Below are positions 641 through 22,541 of a stretch of DNA of 25,849 nt, piece after piece (position 1 is the stretch's first letter; the number at the start of each line of letters is the position of its first letter). Both the position numbers and the translations under genes were made by a program. Location of the stretch: IMG/VR virus record IMGVR_UViG_2909246061_000004. The stretch is one strand, 5' to 3'. Origin of the DNA: a virus. Its lineage: Duplodnaviria > Heunggongvirae > Uroviricota > Caudoviricetes. Below the pieces are notes generated by a model. It had not been told where the DNA came from. It did not search any database and saw only the letters and a program-made list of their open reading frames with translations.

Positions 641-696
641 AAACGGCGGCAGAGCAGTCACGGAGTAAAACTGATACCGCCAAACGTCACCAGAAA
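641..696 (-). ncRNA. dicF: DicF small regulatory RNA with 3' terminator U-tract
   Basis: Reverse complement of 645..696 reads TTTCTGGTGACGTTTGGCGGTATCAGTTTTACTCCGTGACTGCTCTGCCGCC, matching remembered DicF, followed by TTTTTAAAG on the minus strand. Confidence 0.8.
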
Positions 697-4766: not shown

Positions 4767-6050
4767 CGAGATTAAAGTGCATTAGTTCAGATGCAAATTG
4801 ACATTTTGTGGCACAGGGTAGAGCTAGCGTGGTTGTCCGCTTTGTGCCAACAGCGGACATTATGGAAGGTCAGAGTTAAAGATTAAAATGGGATGCTGTG
4901 TGTTTTCTCCAGGTTTTGCTCTATACCTTTCGGGATACTCCACCGACAGAATACGAAAATCAACATTATCAACGGCTCGAAGTGTCTAGATTATCCATGG
5001 CAATTCATGGGAAATCCCATCCAACGGCTTATGCTTCATGTTGCTTTTTGAGATCGCTTCTAGCATAGCTCCACTCAATAATGTTGTCGGGTCGTTGCTG
5101 ATCGAAAAGGATACGGGATTCAATACCATTACCTAAAAAGCTGGTATTCCCATCTACGTAAGAAGCTATCCCTTGTGAACCAACACGAAGAATATTTTCT
5201 AATGGCTGTTTTGTTCTTGCTGCATCGCTAAGGAGATATAAACCCGGGTACGTTTTGTTAGCACGGTGAAAAAAAAGTTCATTGTCAAAACACATGACGA
5301 TGATTATTTGTCCCGACATGAGATCGGAGAGCATTTCAGTTGGCAGATGCAAACTCATAAATGGTCGAGACAAAGGGTCAAAGAATGAATCATTTATATT
5401 CACAACAGGGCTTTTTATACCGAGACTATCCATCCATCCATTGAAGGCAACAAAGCCCATTTCAGAATCACGGTACATACCTAAGAACAAACATTCATCA
5501 ATAGTATCAATTGCCCAATTTTTTCCTCCGCGAATAATCTCCCACATTTTAACTAAGCGGTGGGTATAAAATTCAGACGGATGATCTATCTCATTGATTT
5601 TAACTTTAGACTGATGAAAGTTGTCAAAGCCCTCGCCAGTATTAATCGCCTCCAGAACATTCATGCCACGAATGATTTGCCTTTTTATGCGATTAAATTG
5701 CTTAACATCATTATCAGGCATATTGTTAATGAAGTTTTCTTCAAAGTGCGGACATTCTGAGATAACAGAAAATTCAGCAGCTTCATAAAGCTCATTATTC
5801 TTTTCACCTGTTTTAACTTCCACGAGCTGGAAGCCATCCAGTAGATTAAAGGTGACTAAATCTCCCACATGAACAAATGTGCTCATGTCAGAGACAATCG
5901 CTACGGAGTGTTTGTCCTGGTTGATAAGATCGGCTGCGACCATAGAATCAATTATGTTATCTTCTGATAGATTGTCATTGCTTGCATTAATAGGTAAACG
6001 CCGCAAACTAGAGTGTTCTTCATCAAGAATGCTCCAAATTATTGAGTCAA

Positions 6051-6059
6051 TACAACGGC
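6051..6059. repeat. IS1 target-site duplication, left copy (TACAACGGC)
   Basis: Identical 9-mer at 6828..6836 directly flanking the other IS1 end. Confidence 0.85.
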
Positions 6060-6074
6060 GGTAATGACTCCAAC

Positions 6075-6578
6075 TTATTGATAGTGTTTTATGTTCAGAT
6101 AATGCCCGATGACTTTGTCATGCAGCTCCACCGATTTTGAGAACGACAGCGACTTCCGTCCCAGCCGTGCCAGGTGCTGCCTCAGATTCAGGTTATGCCG
6201 CTCAATTCGCTGCGTATATCGCTTGCTGATTACGTGCAGCTTTCCCTTCAGGCGGGATTCATACAGCGGCCAGCCATCCGTCATCCATATCACCACGTCA
6301 AAGGGTGACAGCAGGCTCATAAGACGCCCCAGCGTCGCCATAGTGCGTTCACCGAATACGTGCGCAACAACCGTCTTCCGGAGCCTGTCATACGCGTAAA
6401 ACAGCCAGCGCTGGCGCGATTTAGCCCCGACATAGCCCCACTGTTCGTCCATTTCCGCGCAGACGATGACGTCACTGCCCGGCTGTATGCGCGAGGTTAC
6501 CGACTGCGGCCTGAGTTTTTTAAATGGCGGAAAATCGTGTTGAGGCCAACGCCCATAATGCGGGCGGTTGCCCGGCAT
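6075..6578 (-). CDS. insB: IS1 InsB (transposase C-terminal frame)
   Basis: 167-aa ORF matching remembered IS1 InsB. Confidence 0.9.
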
Positions 6579-6772
6579 CCAACGCCATTCATGGCCATAT
6601 CAATGATTTTCTGGTGCGTACCGGGTTGAGAAGCGGTGTAAGTGAACTGCAGTTGCCATGTTTTACGGCAGTGAGAGCAGAGATAGCGCTGATGTCCGGC
6701 AGTGCTTTTGCCGTTACGCACCACCCCGTCAGTAGCTGAACAGGAGGGACAGCTGATAGAAACAGAAGCCAC
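6497..6772 (-). CDS. insA: IS1 InsA
   Basis: 91-aa [43 protein letters not shown]... matching remembered IS1 InsA. Confidence 0.9.
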
Positions 6773-6827
6773 TGGAGCACCTCAAAAACACCATCATACA
6801 CTAAATCAGTAAGTTGGCAGCATCACC

Positions 6828-6836
6828 TACAACGGC
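6828..6836. repeat. IS1 target-site duplication, right copy (TACAACGGC)
   Basis: Identical to 6051..6059. Confidence 0.85.
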
Positions 6837-7286
6837 GAAGAATAAGAATTTCAAATTTTTTTAAACTTATTTCATCAATACACTTTTCTTTATTTTCTTT
6901 ATCCTTGTTTCGATGGTGCTCTTTTTTTTCAGTTTTCAATCTTTTTATATCTCTCAGCCGAATAATAATCTCAAAAGATATGATTTTTTGTGAGTCTTTC
7001 CAATTTTTGAGACAGGTTTCATACTCTGCAAGAAAATCCTCATCATTGGAAGGTAGTTCTTGAATTGGATTCCCTCCCCTTATCATTTTGGCAAGTGCAT
7101 GCATTAAAGATACATAATGAGGTGATAAAATTGTCCAAAACTTCCTAAACGGTTTGTACTTTTCAAGAAAAGTTGACTCATCAGTATAATTCATCATAAC
7201 CAAACCTCATTCCTCTTATCTATTTTCCTCAAGGTATAAAATACCAGCCTTTTTTACATAATTATAGTTATAATATGAAGTCTCAT

Positions 7287-8156
7287 TCAGATATCTTCAT
7301 ACTGTACGTAAGAAATATTTGAGCCTCTGATACCATAATCTTCTAAACTGCCTGATTTTTTCTCACCTCTATATAAAGCAACTATCCATCGAGCATTTTC
7401 TTGGATGCTTTTATTTATTTCAGTAAAGTATTCACCGTCAACTTCGGCGAGCGAGTGGCCTAAAACGATGACCTCGTCCACATTTTTAAGCGATGAGAAA
7501 AAAACGTTTTCTTCTTTAATTATGTCTTCGCTGGGCTTGAATGTATTACCGAAGTATTCGTTTATTCTGTCGTATGCCTCTGCTATTCTTGTATCTTGAT
7601 CCGGTCCTATATATGGATTTAGTGACTTTTCCACCCTAAAACTATGACCAAGTATGAGATCGTCATCGTAACTACAATTGCCGTGAATATGTATGATTTG
7701 CTCGTCTGGAACGGCATAGATCTGCTGCAAGGTATTTGTATAATTAAATGAAAAATAGATGCTTTCTCTTGGTATGGGCGGGATGTATTGCTTAGGATTG
7801 TAAGCATCGGCTATGTTAATCCCTTTAACCCAATCAGCGAATTGCTCCTTCAAACGAGCTGACAGCATTTGTGTGATTTTATTTACTTCATATTGGTAAT
7901 CGTGATGATAAGCATCGCTCCAATCATCGGTATTGTATGAAGCCAAAAATATCTCACTGTTTTGAAGGATAAGCTCATAATCAATTTCACCTAAAGCATT
8001 TTCTAACTCATTCCACTCGTCCCCAGCAGGAATGTATTCTTCTATCGCGTCATATAGATCTTGGTCATTTTTTTCTACATACGACTTAAAGTGCTTGTAT
8101 CCTGTTGGTAAGCCATGACGCATGTCAAATCCATTTCCTATTATGTAAAGCCTCAT
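7287..8156 (-). CDS. AbiH-like abortive-infection protein (290 aa)
   Basis: Start at the ATG at 8156 with AAGGGA RBS 8 nt upstream; N-terminus MRLYIIGNGFDMRHGLPTGY carries the IGNGFD-x-HGL motif remembered for the AbiH family; AT-rich gene inside a prophage. Confidence 0.5.
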   Translation of the reverse strand: MRLYIIGNGFDMRHGLPTGYKHFKSYVEKNDQDLYDAIEEYIPAGDEWNELENALGEIDYELILQNSEIFLASYNTDDWSDAYHHDYQYEVNKITQMLSARLKEQFADWVKGINIADAYNPKQYIPPIPRESIYFSFNYTNTLQQIYAVPDEQIIHIHGNCSYDDDLILGHSFRVEKSLNPYIGPDQDTRIAEAYDRINEYFGNTFKPSEDIIKEENVFFSSLKNVDEVIVLGHSLAEVDGEYFTEINKSIQENARWIVALYRGEKKSGSLEDYGIRGSNISYVQYEDI

Positions 8157-8470
8157 TGTTTTTCCCTTAGTCGAATTGTATAAAAATACTAACATGGCCT
8201 GCTCCACGTTGACTACTATCCCCTCCTTTGAGTAATGCCTTCATCAGATGTAACAACATTTGCGAGCTTCCACAGTTCGCTCAAAGCGGACTAGAAGGTT
8301 AGCTTGCGTCGGACTTGGCGTATTTAAAGAAGTGCTGGTGGAGACTGGTTGTTGTGTTCCATTTCTACAGAACAAAATCACAGAAACTATACCCAATAGT
8401 TATATTGAATCAATGATGAGACAGCCTCATATTTATCAGGACTGGTGTACGTCCAATACAGGAGGTTGTC

Positions 8471-8560
8471 GTGCTGGTTCTCAAATGTGCGCTAGCTATT
8501 GCGGCTGTAATGGCAATTTATTGTCTTGCTGTTGTTCTTACGGATCGCCTTTCTGATTGA
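8471..8560 (+). CDS. Candidate small hydrophobic peptide (29 aa, MLVLKCALAIAAVMAIYCLAVVLTDRLSD), GTG start
   Basis: AGGAGG at 8460..8465 sits 5 nt before the GTG at 8471; possible promoter TTGAAT-N17-CATATT at 8405..8433; product is one transmembrane-length hydrophobic helix; too short for the ORF track. Confidence 0.25.
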   Translation: MLVLKCALAIAAVMAIYCLAVVLTDRLSD

Positions 8561-8771
8561 TTTTATATTGGCGAGGTGACGTGAGTTAAGTAGAATTGCT
8601 GCGGGTGCTTGAGGCTATCTGCCTCAGGCATGAACACCAAAGGCAGATAGAGAAAAGCCCCAGTTAACATTACGCGTCCTGCAAGACGCTTAACATTAAT
8701 CTGAGGCCAATTTCATGCTAGACACATGTAGGTTAGCCTCTTACGTGCCGAAAGGCAAGGAGAAGCAGGCT

Positions 8772-8927
8772 ATGAAGCAGCAAAAGGCGATGTTAATCGC
8801 CCTGATCGTCATCTGTTTAACCGTCATAGTGACGGCACTGGTAACGAGGAAAGACCTCTGCGAGGTACGAATCCGAACCGGCCAGACGGAGGTCGCTGTC
8901 TTCACAGCTTACGAACCTGAGGAGTAA
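8772..8927 (+). CDS. hokD: Hok-family type I toxin (51 aa), HokD/RelF-like
   Basis: MKQQKAMLIALIVICLTVIVTALVTRKDLCEVRIRTGQTEVAVFTAYEPEE matches remembered HokD; AAGGAG RBS; structured leader upstream and terminator downstream. Confidence 0.85.
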   Translation: MKQQKAMLIALIVICLTVIVTALVTRKDLCEVRIRTGQTEVAVFTAYEPEE

Positions 8928-8997
8928 GAGACCAGGCGAGGGAGAAATCCCTCGCCACCTCTGATGTGTCAGGCATCCTCAATGCACCCGCACTTAA

Positions 8998-9020
8998 CCC
9001 GCTTCGGCGGGTTTATTTTA
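8998..9020 (+). terminator. Rho-independent terminator after hok
   Basis: CCCGC-TTCG-GCGGG hairpin followed by TTTATTTTA. Confidence 0.6.
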
Positions 9021-9385
9021 TCTGTAAATATTTTTATAAAAATAATGCCCACACACAGCATAAAACAAAAAGTATCACAGATAAAAAAGGAGCGTAATGT
9101 GCAGATTTGTTGTTTTCCATATTTACTCACTTTAACATAATCAATATTGATATGGTTGTTGTTTTGGTGGTTTCAAACGAGATGTTATGGTGATCTGGTA
9201 AAATTGCATAACATTAAAATTTAATTTATCTAATCGCTTTTAATAATAAGCGTTGTGTTTATCCCAACAATCTGTTGTTTGACTTTTATTCCATTAATGT
9301 AGGGGCTTTACACTGGAACCAGTTTATTTATACTTTATACGCCAGCCTGAACAACTGGCACCTGCTGCGCCAGCAGAGACAACCG

Positions 9386-15808: not shown

Positions 15809-16171
15809 GGTAATATTAAATCGGAACATTTACATCGCGGAATGTAAAATTTAAATAAAAAGGACTCTTCCATGAGCCAAAATTCCTGAAATCTTAAGGG
15901 TAAGATAAAAGGTCTTAATCAGAATGACACGTTATTATTAATAAATAAAGCTATTCTTTCATTGCTGTGTTTTTCTTTACAAAAGTAATCCTTGCTATGG
16001 GTGGTTAATCATGCGTTAATGGTGTTCTGGTTTGTTACAAATTTATCTGAAGCAGTCATTGTTATAATTTTATTATTTGTACCTCTTGAGATTTCCTTGT
16101 TGGTTTTTCTCTCTGATATTTTTTTTCGGACCATTCTGCCCAAGGGCTAATTTCTTCAAAAGGTAATAATT

Positions 16172-16384
16172 ATGTCTAACAAAATGACTGGTTTAGTGAA
16201 ATGGTTTAACCCTGAAAAAGGTTTTGGTTTCATCACGCCGAAAGATGGCAGCAAAGATGTGTTTGTCCATTTCTCAGCAATTCAGAGCAACGATTTCAAA
16301 ACATTAACTGAGAATCAGGAAGTTGAATTTGGTATTGAGAACGGACCTAAAGGTCCTGCCGCTGTTCATGTAGTGGCGCTTTGA
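16172..16384 (+). CDS. cspI: Cold-shock protein CspI
   Basis: [53 protein letters not shown]... matches remembered CspI; long AT-rich 5' leader typical of csp genes. Confidence 0.85.
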
Positions 16385-16591
16385 GGTAGACAATATTACA
16401 AACCATATTCACTTTAGATGCCCGTGTTGTCATGGTTCCCAGTATAGAACATCATCTTTTGATGTTTCTGACATGAATCCTTTCGGGGCAAAATGTATCT
16501 TTTGTAAATCAATGATGATTACATTTGATAATATTTCACAATACTTAAATGCCAGCCGTCTGTCGTTGGATTTAAAAAAGTGAAAATGAAG

Positions 16592-21966: not shown

Positions 21967-22541
21967 TGGCATTCAGAATGAGTGAACAACCACAGACCAT
22001 AAAAATTTATAATCTGCTGGCCGGAACTAATGAATTTATTGGTGAAGGTGACGCATATATTCCGCCTCATACAGGTCTGCCAGCAAACAGTACCGATATT
22101 GCACCGCCAGATATTCCGGCAGGCTTCGTGGCTGTTTTCAACAGTGATGAGGCATCGTGGCATCTCGTTGAAGATCATCGGGGAAAAACCGTCTATGACG
22201 TGGCTTCCGGCGACGCGTTATTTATTTCTGAACTCGGTCCGTTACCGGAAAATGTTACCTGGTTATCGCCGGAAGGGGAGTTTCAGAAGTGGAACGGCAC
22301 AGCCTGGGTGAAGGATACGGAAGCAGAAAAACTGTTCCGGATCCGGGAGGCGGAAGAAACAAAAAACAACCTGATGCAGGTAGCCAGTGAGCATATTGCG
22401 CCGCTTCAGGATGCTGCAGATCTGGAAATTGCAACGGAGGAAGAAATCTCGTTGCTGGAAGCATGGAAAAAGTATCGGGTATTGCTGAACCGTGTTGATA
22501 CGTCAACTGCACAGGATATTGAATGGCCAGCACTGCCGTAG
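21966..22541 (+). CDS. Tail-fibre assembly protein Tfa
   Basis: [43 protein letters not shown]... typical Tfa; its start overlaps the tail-fibre stop by 1 nt. Confidence 0.8.

Follow-up and report, generated by a model that had tools for sequence, protein, structure and literature searches.

A 29-codon gene for a predicted membrane microprotein upstream of hok in Qin-like lambdoid prophages of Escherichia coli

The 25,849-nt viral sequence IMGVR_UViG_2909246061_000004, referred to as the window herein, is a Qin-like lambdoid prophage of Escherichia coli. Between its abiH gene and its hokD/mok/sok locus lies a 29-codon open reading frame (ORF) at 8471-8560 on the plus strand, and we found that this ORF is a real protein-coding gene, which we call the microprotein gene. 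With its promoter and leader it forms a cassette that Qin-like lambdoid prophages of Escherichia and Shigella carry in their early-right (replication to nin) region. The best overall explanation for the product, one that we regard as probable if well short of assured, is a lysogen-expressed, single-pass modulator in the inner membrane. Two high-throughput supplementary tables, along with scattered annotations as 'hypothetical protein', have already recorded the existence of the ORF family, its translation, and its coding signature. New here are the anatomy of the cassette, the union of a 29-residue and a 34-residue form in one family, a quantified and non-obligate linkage to hok, and the rejection of a type I toxin reading.

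Cassette anatomy, coding signature, and translation

A sequence-only reading of this region had placed AGGAGG 5 nt before a GTG at 8471, at the head of a 29-codon frame, and this was confirmed base for base. The promoter proposed in the same reading, TTGAAT-N17-CATATT, is likewise present in the sequence, and its hexamers proved to be conserved across diverged contexts. The elements of the cassette are as follows.

8405-8410, plus strand: -35 hexamer TTGAAT of the microprotein promoter, read from the sequence
8428-8433, plus strand: -10 hexamer CATATT, 17 nt after the -35, read from the sequence
8438-8470, plus strand: predicted short 5′ leader of ~30-33 nt, including the motif GTGTACGTC at 8445-8453
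8460-8465, plus strand: Shine-Dalgarno sequence AGGAGG, with a 5-nt spacer (ttgtc) to the start codon
8471-8560, plus strand: coding sequence (CDS) of the microprotein, GTG start, 29 codons, MLVLKCALAIAAVMAIYCLAVVLTDRLSD, stop codon TGA at 8558-8560, from the ORF list

From the position of the promoter, we predict that transcription of the microprotein gene starts at ~8438-8441. A simple consensus promoter scan omits TTGAAT-N17-CATATT because CATATT falls below the scan threshold. When six upstream contexts with diverged or unrelated spacers and flanks were compared, the -35 hexamer read TTGAAT, TTGAAG, TTGAGT, or TTGCTG, and the -10 hexamer CATATT, the 17-nt spacing, and the distance to the start codon were invariant. 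This conservation suggests that the two hexamers form the promoter of the gene. The Shine-Dalgarno sequence AGGAGG occurs only four times on the plus strand of the whole window, and three of these copies stand 4-5 nt before a start codon, two of them serving ORFs of 140 and 516 codons and the third the microprotein ORF. This implies that the microprotein Shine-Dalgarno sequence is more than a chance match. Upon folding of the leader, the Shine-Dalgarno sequence and start codon fell in an open loop; the z-score was only -1.7, and the fold was no more stable than that of shuffled sequence.

Several further features of the cassette were noted. The leader motif GTGTACGTC is retained with one or two changes in leaders that have otherwise diverged. 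This motif can pair with codons 5-8, but the resulting leader stem (90% paired) was rejected as a conserved structure, with zero compensatory pairs, observed values equal to those of shuffles, and no covariation. Inverted repeats flanking the cassette (8402-8414 and 8556-8568) are absent from other contexts and are probably due to chance. On the minus strand, a promoter-like site at 8386-8413 (TTGATT-N16-TATAGT) has a -35 that overlaps the plus-strand microprotein -35; the site is a candidate divergent promoter for abiH, and its -35 is weaker (GTGATT) in other contexts.

Variants of the ORF were collected by two IMG/VR scans, one anchored on the ORF itself by a degenerate DNA pattern and one anchored on the hok promoter and hence unbiased for the ORF, and E. 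coli variants derived from BLAST, which carry no search bias, were added. Across the ~45 distinct nucleotide variants, the frame, the start, and the Shine-Dalgarno spacing are kept with no indel and no nonsense change, and the stop codon is lost in one. The start is GTG, sometimes GTG-GTG or ATG-GTG, and the Shine-Dalgarno sequence reads AGGAGG, GGGAGG, CAGGAG, or GGGGG at fixed spacing. For instance, the NADC1036 and ST70 variants found by BLAST carry many synonymous changes and still keep the ORF. Per-site variability in the unbiased set is 1.2-1.9 upstream of the Shine-Dalgarno sequence and drops to 0.30 within the ORF. Within type A, the 29-residue form, the unbiased set holds 26 variant alleles, distributed 6/6/14 over the three codon positions; 13 of these are synonymous and 13 nonsynonymous, where 8 synonymous changes are expected (p = 0.03). 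The same alleles split 6 synonymous to 20 nonsynonymous in the +2 frame and 5 to 18, with 3 stop codons, in the +1 frame.

A second form of the gene surfaced in the hok-anchored scan. This type B ORF encodes 34 residues (MSDDISLAMEGALAVIAVVGVYCLVVFLMDRLGN) from an ATG start behind AAGGAGG. Types A and B align without gaps at 60-68% nucleotide and 45-59% amino acid identity, with 13-17 differences at third codon positions versus 5-7 at second positions, and both end just upstream of the hok promoter. Between the two types, dN/dS by the NG86 method is 0.35 in the microprotein frame and 0.59 and 1.55 in the other two frames. Pooled pN/pS over five diverse alleles is 0.47 in the microprotein frame versus 0.64 and 0.98 in the others. 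Both the conservation of the frame in related prophages and the analysis of synonymous sites, which the sequence-only reading had named as checks, thus came out in favor of the ORF, the latter with ratios of 0.35-0.47 versus 0.6-1.5. A 98-codon, Cys-rich ORF in the +2 frame (8260-8556, plus strand) overlaps the microprotein ORF and is open in all type A copies. We rejected this frame as coding, since its pN/pS of 1.0-1.5 and its 6:20 split reveal no constraint.

The type B ORF of E. coli O157:H7 strain Sakai, XECs145, is annotated in the current record as ECs_5710, a 34-residue hypothetical protein of prophage Sp6 located directly upstream of the mok/hok gene. Between its stop codon and the hok promoter stands a perfect 22-bp palindrome, CGATATGGGAATTCCCATATCG (2576-2597 of locus L221). 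In other hok loci, the palindrome or a near-identical copy comes after upstream genes that are unrelated. Lacking a T-run, it is not an obvious terminator and could be a protein-binding site.

Published ribosome profiling covers both forms. Table S4 of Fesenko et al. ('The Cryptic Bacterial Microproteome', PMC11188072) lists the BL21(DE3) allele, VLVLKCTLAIVAVMAIYCLVIVLMDHLSD, at NC_012971.2:1591437-1591524(-), with translation initiation site counts of 13 (fraction 1) and 38 ribosome-protected fragments (0.90) in the retapamulin dataset. The allele is classed there as Entero67K (intergenic ORFs predicted to be coding), in the 389-member cluster Escherichia_98807 with a dN/dS of 0.46. We verified that the BL21 ORF sits 42 nt upstream of the hok leader, as in the window; it shares 23 of 29 residues (79%) with the window allele and differs from it at 8 of 87 nucleotides. 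In BL21(DE3) (1938-2060 of locus L220, minus strand), a deletion fuses a DUF977 gene to a point 23 nt before the microprotein GTG and removes the promoter. The annotated DUF977 CDS runs 40 nt into the small ORF in another frame, and the retapamulin (Ribo-RET) initiation signal is still present. For Sakai XECs145 grown in lysogeny broth (LB), Hucker et al. (2017; PMC5597208, S2 Table) report 79.1 reads per kilobase per million (RPKM) for RNA, a RIBOseq RPKM of 346.1, a ribosome coverage value (RCV) of 4.35, and a coverage of 0.99; the mean RCV of short annotated genes in that study is 1.55. Profiling had been suggested as a check on the ORF, and the published data supply it, in the form of the BL21 GTG signal and the Sakai RCV, for alleles other than that of the window. 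Taken together with the selection data, this makes it very probable that the microprotein gene is translated.

The sequence-only reading had described the product as a single membrane-spanning helix with a polar tail, and the peptide bears this out, with a grand average of hydropathy of 1.72 and a best 19-mer of 2.56. One transmembrane helix is predicted at residues ~2-24, followed by the short polar tail DRLSD. The helix is rich in Ala and Val. One face has a small-xxx-small pattern (A7, A11/A12, A15), and Tyr17 and a juxtamembrane Asp-Arg are conserved. Among 16 aligned type A and B sequences, L2, L8, A9, V13, Y17, C18, L19, and L23 are invariant. The Sakai homolog was likewise predicted to be an inner membrane protein (PMC5597208).

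Distribution, annotation, and genomic setting

Matches to 8380-8600 that cover at least 80% of this interval occur in 1745 of 5426 complete E. coli genomes, about a third. No RefSeq feature lies under the ORF match in the 40 matches listed of 2649 E. coli records; RefSeq does annotate hokD in loci identical to that of the window. Public protein collections do contain the exact peptide. Older GenBank records name the ORF 'membrane protein' (34 residues, from a different start) or 'conserved hypothetical protein', with entries that include REL606 ACT39199.1 and BL21 ACT43394.1, and the record of phage HannyBb places two reverse-strand 'hypothetical' calls, CDS0048/0049, over it. The earlier description of the ORF as unannotated thus holds for RefSeq among the matches listed and fails for older GenBank records and the published microprotein catalogue.

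Profile searches of Pfam, NCBIfam, PHROGs, PADLOC, and PDB gave no family match for the microprotein. Only sub-threshold composition matches were seen (E 0.007-0.07), to KdpF (14.7 bits versus a cut-off of 26.85), ATP synthase c (16 bits versus 116), and SecE. When the window peptide was searched with phmmer against 1.84 billion representative proteins, there were nine matches, all at least 83% identical; because all nine are the same ORF called with different starts, the search revealed no remote relatives. A pattern scan of one genome per species yielded 14 loci, of which the real ones were confined to Escherichia ruysiae and Shigella flexneri, and the others were rejected as chance matches inside unrelated genes. 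For type B, tblastn against the phage collection gave no match and blastn matched the hok-promoter part only; cultured-phage records rarely carry this type. A literature search for the microprotein peptide string found no match.

The position of the ORF between an AbiH-like gene and hok, as first noted from the sequence, was confirmed by PADLOC for abiH and by Rfam for the hok locus. The neighboring features are listed below, with the 5′ end of the hok mRNA (~8603) placed from the Rfam alignment.

7287-8195, minus strand: abiH, the upstream neighbor, PADLOC AbiH E = 1.7e-27
8568-8596, plus strand: hok promoter TTGGCG-N17-TAGAAT, promoter scan
8603-9021, plus strand: hokD/mok/sok locus, Rfam RF01794 at 8603-8777, 119.9 bits
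8603-8771, plus strand: hok leader
8715-8927, plus strand: mok ORF
8772-8927, plus strand: hok CDS
8996-9013, plus strand: hok terminator plus T-run, terminator scan

The abiH gene is followed by a hypothetical gene of 463 codons that is split in the window by an IS1 element (6007-6822, with insA/insB ORFs at 6075-6772). Strain G3/10 has the intact protein, WP_000982358.1, to which the two halves (5029-6006 and 6823-7203) are 99% identical. The reverse-strand genes in the slot 5′ of the cassette vary between genomes, as seen in the window and three other loci (one of them at 1-1022 of locus L222): AbiH and its 463-residue partner are found here, a SIR2-family gene in NADC1036, and proteins of 319-333 residues with no known function in other genomes. 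The slot looks like a hotspot for defence genes. Elsewhere in the window, Rfam matches at gathering level were obtained for DicF RNA (644-695, minus strand), the cspA thermoregulator (16026-16411, plus strand), and IS009 (22309-22507, plus strand), which is consistent with a Qin-like prophage.

Linkage to hok and the weighing of alternatives

In the window, the hok -35 begins 8 nt after the microprotein stop codon, and the terminator scan found no terminator between the two. Our hok-promoter-anchored sample comprised 155 prophage loci. Just 5′ of hok, 86 of them had type A, 23 type B, and 18 type C (described below); 14 loci kept a truncated 3′ remnant of type A, and the last 14 had unrelated sequence there. 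In 70% of the loci, a type A or B ORF ends 8-60 nt before the hok -35, and most type A copies have exactly 42 nt between their stop codon and the start of the hok leader. In every upstream class, the commonest Hok protein sequence is the same one. Complete promoter-plus-ORF cassettes are also found in Shigella flexneri, E. coli ST70, and IMG/VR loci where a terminator and a DUF1971 gene on the reverse strand take the place of hok. Since identical Hok occurs without the ORF and the ORF without hok, the two are neighbors at a moron/defence insertion site rather than an obligate pair, and the linkage of the microprotein to hok is strong, not obligate.

About 10% of the sampled hok loci, five IMG/VR loci among them, keep only the last 5-12 type A codons, joined to unrelated sequence. 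Recombination breakpoints therefore fall inside the ORF, which is also why many E. coli matches cover only 8538-8600. Type C is an apparently unrelated family of 27-residue, single-helix ORFs (MTWPEAFTTVGIAMAVALVVYSICRWG), whose Sakai copy, MIWPEAFAITGVAIAIDFLVYVICRWG, lies at 2344-2427 of locus L221 in Sp6; more than three further loci have it as well. It follows a DUF551 gene and stands either directly 5′ of the hok promoter or 5′ of a type A or B ORF, and some records annotate it only as 'bacteriophage protein'.

This arrangement raises the question of whether the microprotein serves hok. A dedicated partner of Hok, acting as a membrane modulator or protein-level antidote of the toxin 200 nt downstream and turning hok/sok into a three-part system, would account for the frequent adjacency, for the 42-nt distance of most type A copies, for a terminator-free interval that would let one transcript carry both genes, and for the fact that both products are single-pass membrane peptides. 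We consider such a partner unlikely, as identical Hok proteins accompany type A, type B, type C, remnants, or no small ORF at all, with neither co-variation nor dependence, and the ORF and its promoter remain in loci that lack hok. The adjacency may simply reflect tight packing at the moron insertion site, and K-12 hokD, plasmid hok, and other chromosomal hok loci are not known to have such a microprotein partner. The ORF might alternatively act in cis, its transcription or translation tuning the expression or folding of hok mRNA and its peptide being irrelevant. Here, too, the transcript should reach hok, given a stop codon 8 nt before the -35 and no terminator, and the 3′ part of the ORF accompanies the hok module even where the 5′ part has been replaced. 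However, types A and B conserve the amino acid sequence, beyond mere position, at a nucleotide identity of 60%, hok is served by a conserved promoter of its own, the cassette is intact in places without hok, and identical hok modules function without the microprotein ORF, all of which renders a purely cis-acting role quite improbable. Stated more broadly, types A and B could be a functional part of the prophage hok module, either as a modulator or antidote of Hok or by a read-through that yields a 5′-extended hok mRNA escaping tac/fbi/Sok control. If true, hok/sok in lambdoid prophages would have three parts instead of the classic two. The ~70% linkage and the lack of a terminator favor this idea and the separate occurrence of Hok and ORF weakens it, so that we rate it as rather improbable.

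The sequence-only reading had likened the architecture to type I toxins or to small membrane protein genes. The second likeness stood, in that the gene has its own promoter and Shine-Dalgarno sequence, and the first was not supported, in view of the absence of a toxin family match, a short open leader, and constitutive translation. A new type I-like toxin, a second one beside hok that damages the inner membrane, would fit the size and hydrophobicity of a 29-residue single-helix peptide, the toxin/defence neighborhood (abiH upstream, hok/sok downstream, SIR2 in another genome), and a family that is narrow and phage-borne. Yet no match was obtained to Hok/Gef, Ldr, TisB, Ibs, ShoB, or other toxin models (Pfam/NCBIfam at E ≤ 10; PADLOC), in keeping with the earlier remark that the peptide resembles none of Hok, Ldr, Ibs, TisB, ZorO, or RelE, and BLASTP against the window HokD gave no alignment at E ≤ 100. 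The search for an antisense small RNA suggested earlier also came back empty from Rfam, promoter/terminator, and complementarity scans of the sequence. Rfam returned nothing on either strand of 8380-8600 except a chance-level, 18-bit sok match; the sole antisense promoter-like site (8589->8560) loses the critical -10 A2 in many variants, with no terminator for it before 8210 in the terminator scan; and a repeat search detected no complementarity of the ORF to the hok/sok leader. The RNAduplex pairing between the ORF mRNA and antisense hok leader (-54 kcal/mol versus -43 ± 4.7 for shuffles) was rejected as a long, loop-ridden artefact with no real complementarity. Where a type I toxin would be expected to have a long structured leader, that of the microprotein is ~30 nt with an exposed consensus Shine-Dalgarno sequence. 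The Sakai homolog reaches its RCV of 4.35 in plain LB and the BL21 initiation peak appears without stress, and such efficient translation in ordinary growth runs directly counter to what a type I toxin should show, namely tight repression. Lastly, the tail is neutral to acidic, whereas pore-forming toxins typically have a basic or amphipathic one. We therefore regard a toxin as a doubtful identification.

A frame open by chance, within intergenic DNA that is conserved but non-coding, would explain why the ORF is very short, why RefSeq/PGAP makes no call in the matches listed, why the overlapping 98-codon frame is also open in all type A copies, and why the selection signal is only moderate. 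We judge it highly improbable in view of the initiation peak at the GTG in BL21, the translation of the Sakai homolog, the concentration of changes at third positions, a pN/pS that is lowest in the microprotein frame and ~1 or more in the overlapping frame, and the gap-free alignment with type B. It would also seem hard to sustain against a Shine-Dalgarno sequence and start codon that are conserved amid a diverging leader.

Several observations weigh against our preferred explanation, a translated gene for an inner membrane modulator. The ORF-anchored IMG/VR scan forced the residues AVMAIYCL and is biased, and the hok-anchored and BLAST sets, although unbiased, are redundant. The selection statistics are modest (p ~0.03) and purifying selection is only moderate (~0.46), as expected if any hydrophobic helix suffices. 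Ribosome profiling support comes from the BL21 allele (79% identical) and the Sakai homolog (~50%), from which we infer translation of the window allele. The conserved Cys18 is replaced by Gly in one further variant found by BLAST, and the N terminus changes from basic in type A to acidic in type B, such that topology is not callable from charge. In addition, the ORF is truncated or replaced in ~18% of the sampled hok loci, which indicates that the prophage can dispense with it.

Proposed role and comparison with known systems

In the explanation that we favor, a lysogen-expressed modulator, the compact cassette would open with a sigma-70 promoter and a ~30-nt leader, with a strong Shine-Dalgarno sequence then preceding the 29-codon ORF. 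The gene would very likely be transcribed and translated in ordinary lysogenic growth; translation has been observed for the BL21 allele and the Sakai homolog and is expected by extension for the window allele. Its product, judging from hydrophobicity, would likely enter the inner membrane as a single helix. With no terminator separating the hok promoter from the microprotein stop codon, the transcript probably runs on through hok; the two genes would then be physically linked as one moron cassette. For bacterial membrane microproteins such as AcrZ, MgtS, and MgrB, the established action is the packing of the helix against a larger membrane protein. By analogy, the microprotein could be non-toxic and pack against a host or phage membrane protein, thereby modulating this partner, a step that we put forward tentatively and would not yet call probable. 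No candidate partner beyond Hok emerged, and for Hok the test of co-variation and co-occurrence over the 155 loci was negative.

The gene is of an ordinary kind, a prophage membrane microprotein, and its value lies in annotation and follow-up rather than in a new concept. Without RefSeq annotation, it is invisible in most analyses of prophage cargo, defence hotspots, and hok/sok loci. Recognizing it gives lambdoid prophages one more moron product, a membrane protein expressed in lysogens, and corrects calls on the wrong strand or in the wrong frame in some phage records, for instance HannyBb CDS0048/0049. It also supplies a concrete candidate for experiments on prophage hok/sok, in which the upstream 160 bp may have been included in the construct or left out.

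Among previously recorded sequences, Entero67K cluster Escherichia_98807 is the same gene, its BL21 member being 79% identical and occupying the same position upstream of hokD with the same GTG. It appears in PMC11188072 only as a row of a supplementary table, with no name, promoter, family relations, hok linkage, or function, and the BL21 member has had its own promoter deleted, whereas the window holds the complete cassette. ECs_5710/XECs145 is alike in being a single helix (34 residues) that aligns without gaps, sits immediately 5′ of the hok promoter, and is translated in normal growth. It differs in its ATG start and five additional, acidic N-terminal residues (MSDDI), in having no promoter immediately upstream and following another small ORF in an operon, in the 22-bp palindrome before the hok promoter, and in an annotation that reads only hypothetical protein.

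The type I toxins of E. coli (Hok/Gef, Ldr, TisB, IbsC, ShoB, ZorO, and DinQ) resemble the microprotein in size, in their single hydrophobic helix, and in occupying prophage or chromosomal sites near toxin or defence genes. They differ from it in their antisense RNA, their long leader that hides the Shine-Dalgarno sequence, and their repressed translation; for the microprotein, no antisense RNA was found in our scans, the other two traits are missing, and the sequence does not match. AcrZ, MgtS, MgrB, KdpF, and CydX share with it a length of at most 50 residues, little beyond one transmembrane helix, and a strong ribosome-binding site of their own. These proteins are encoded in the core genome and have no detectable homology to the microprotein beyond sub-threshold matches, whereas the microprotein is phage-borne.

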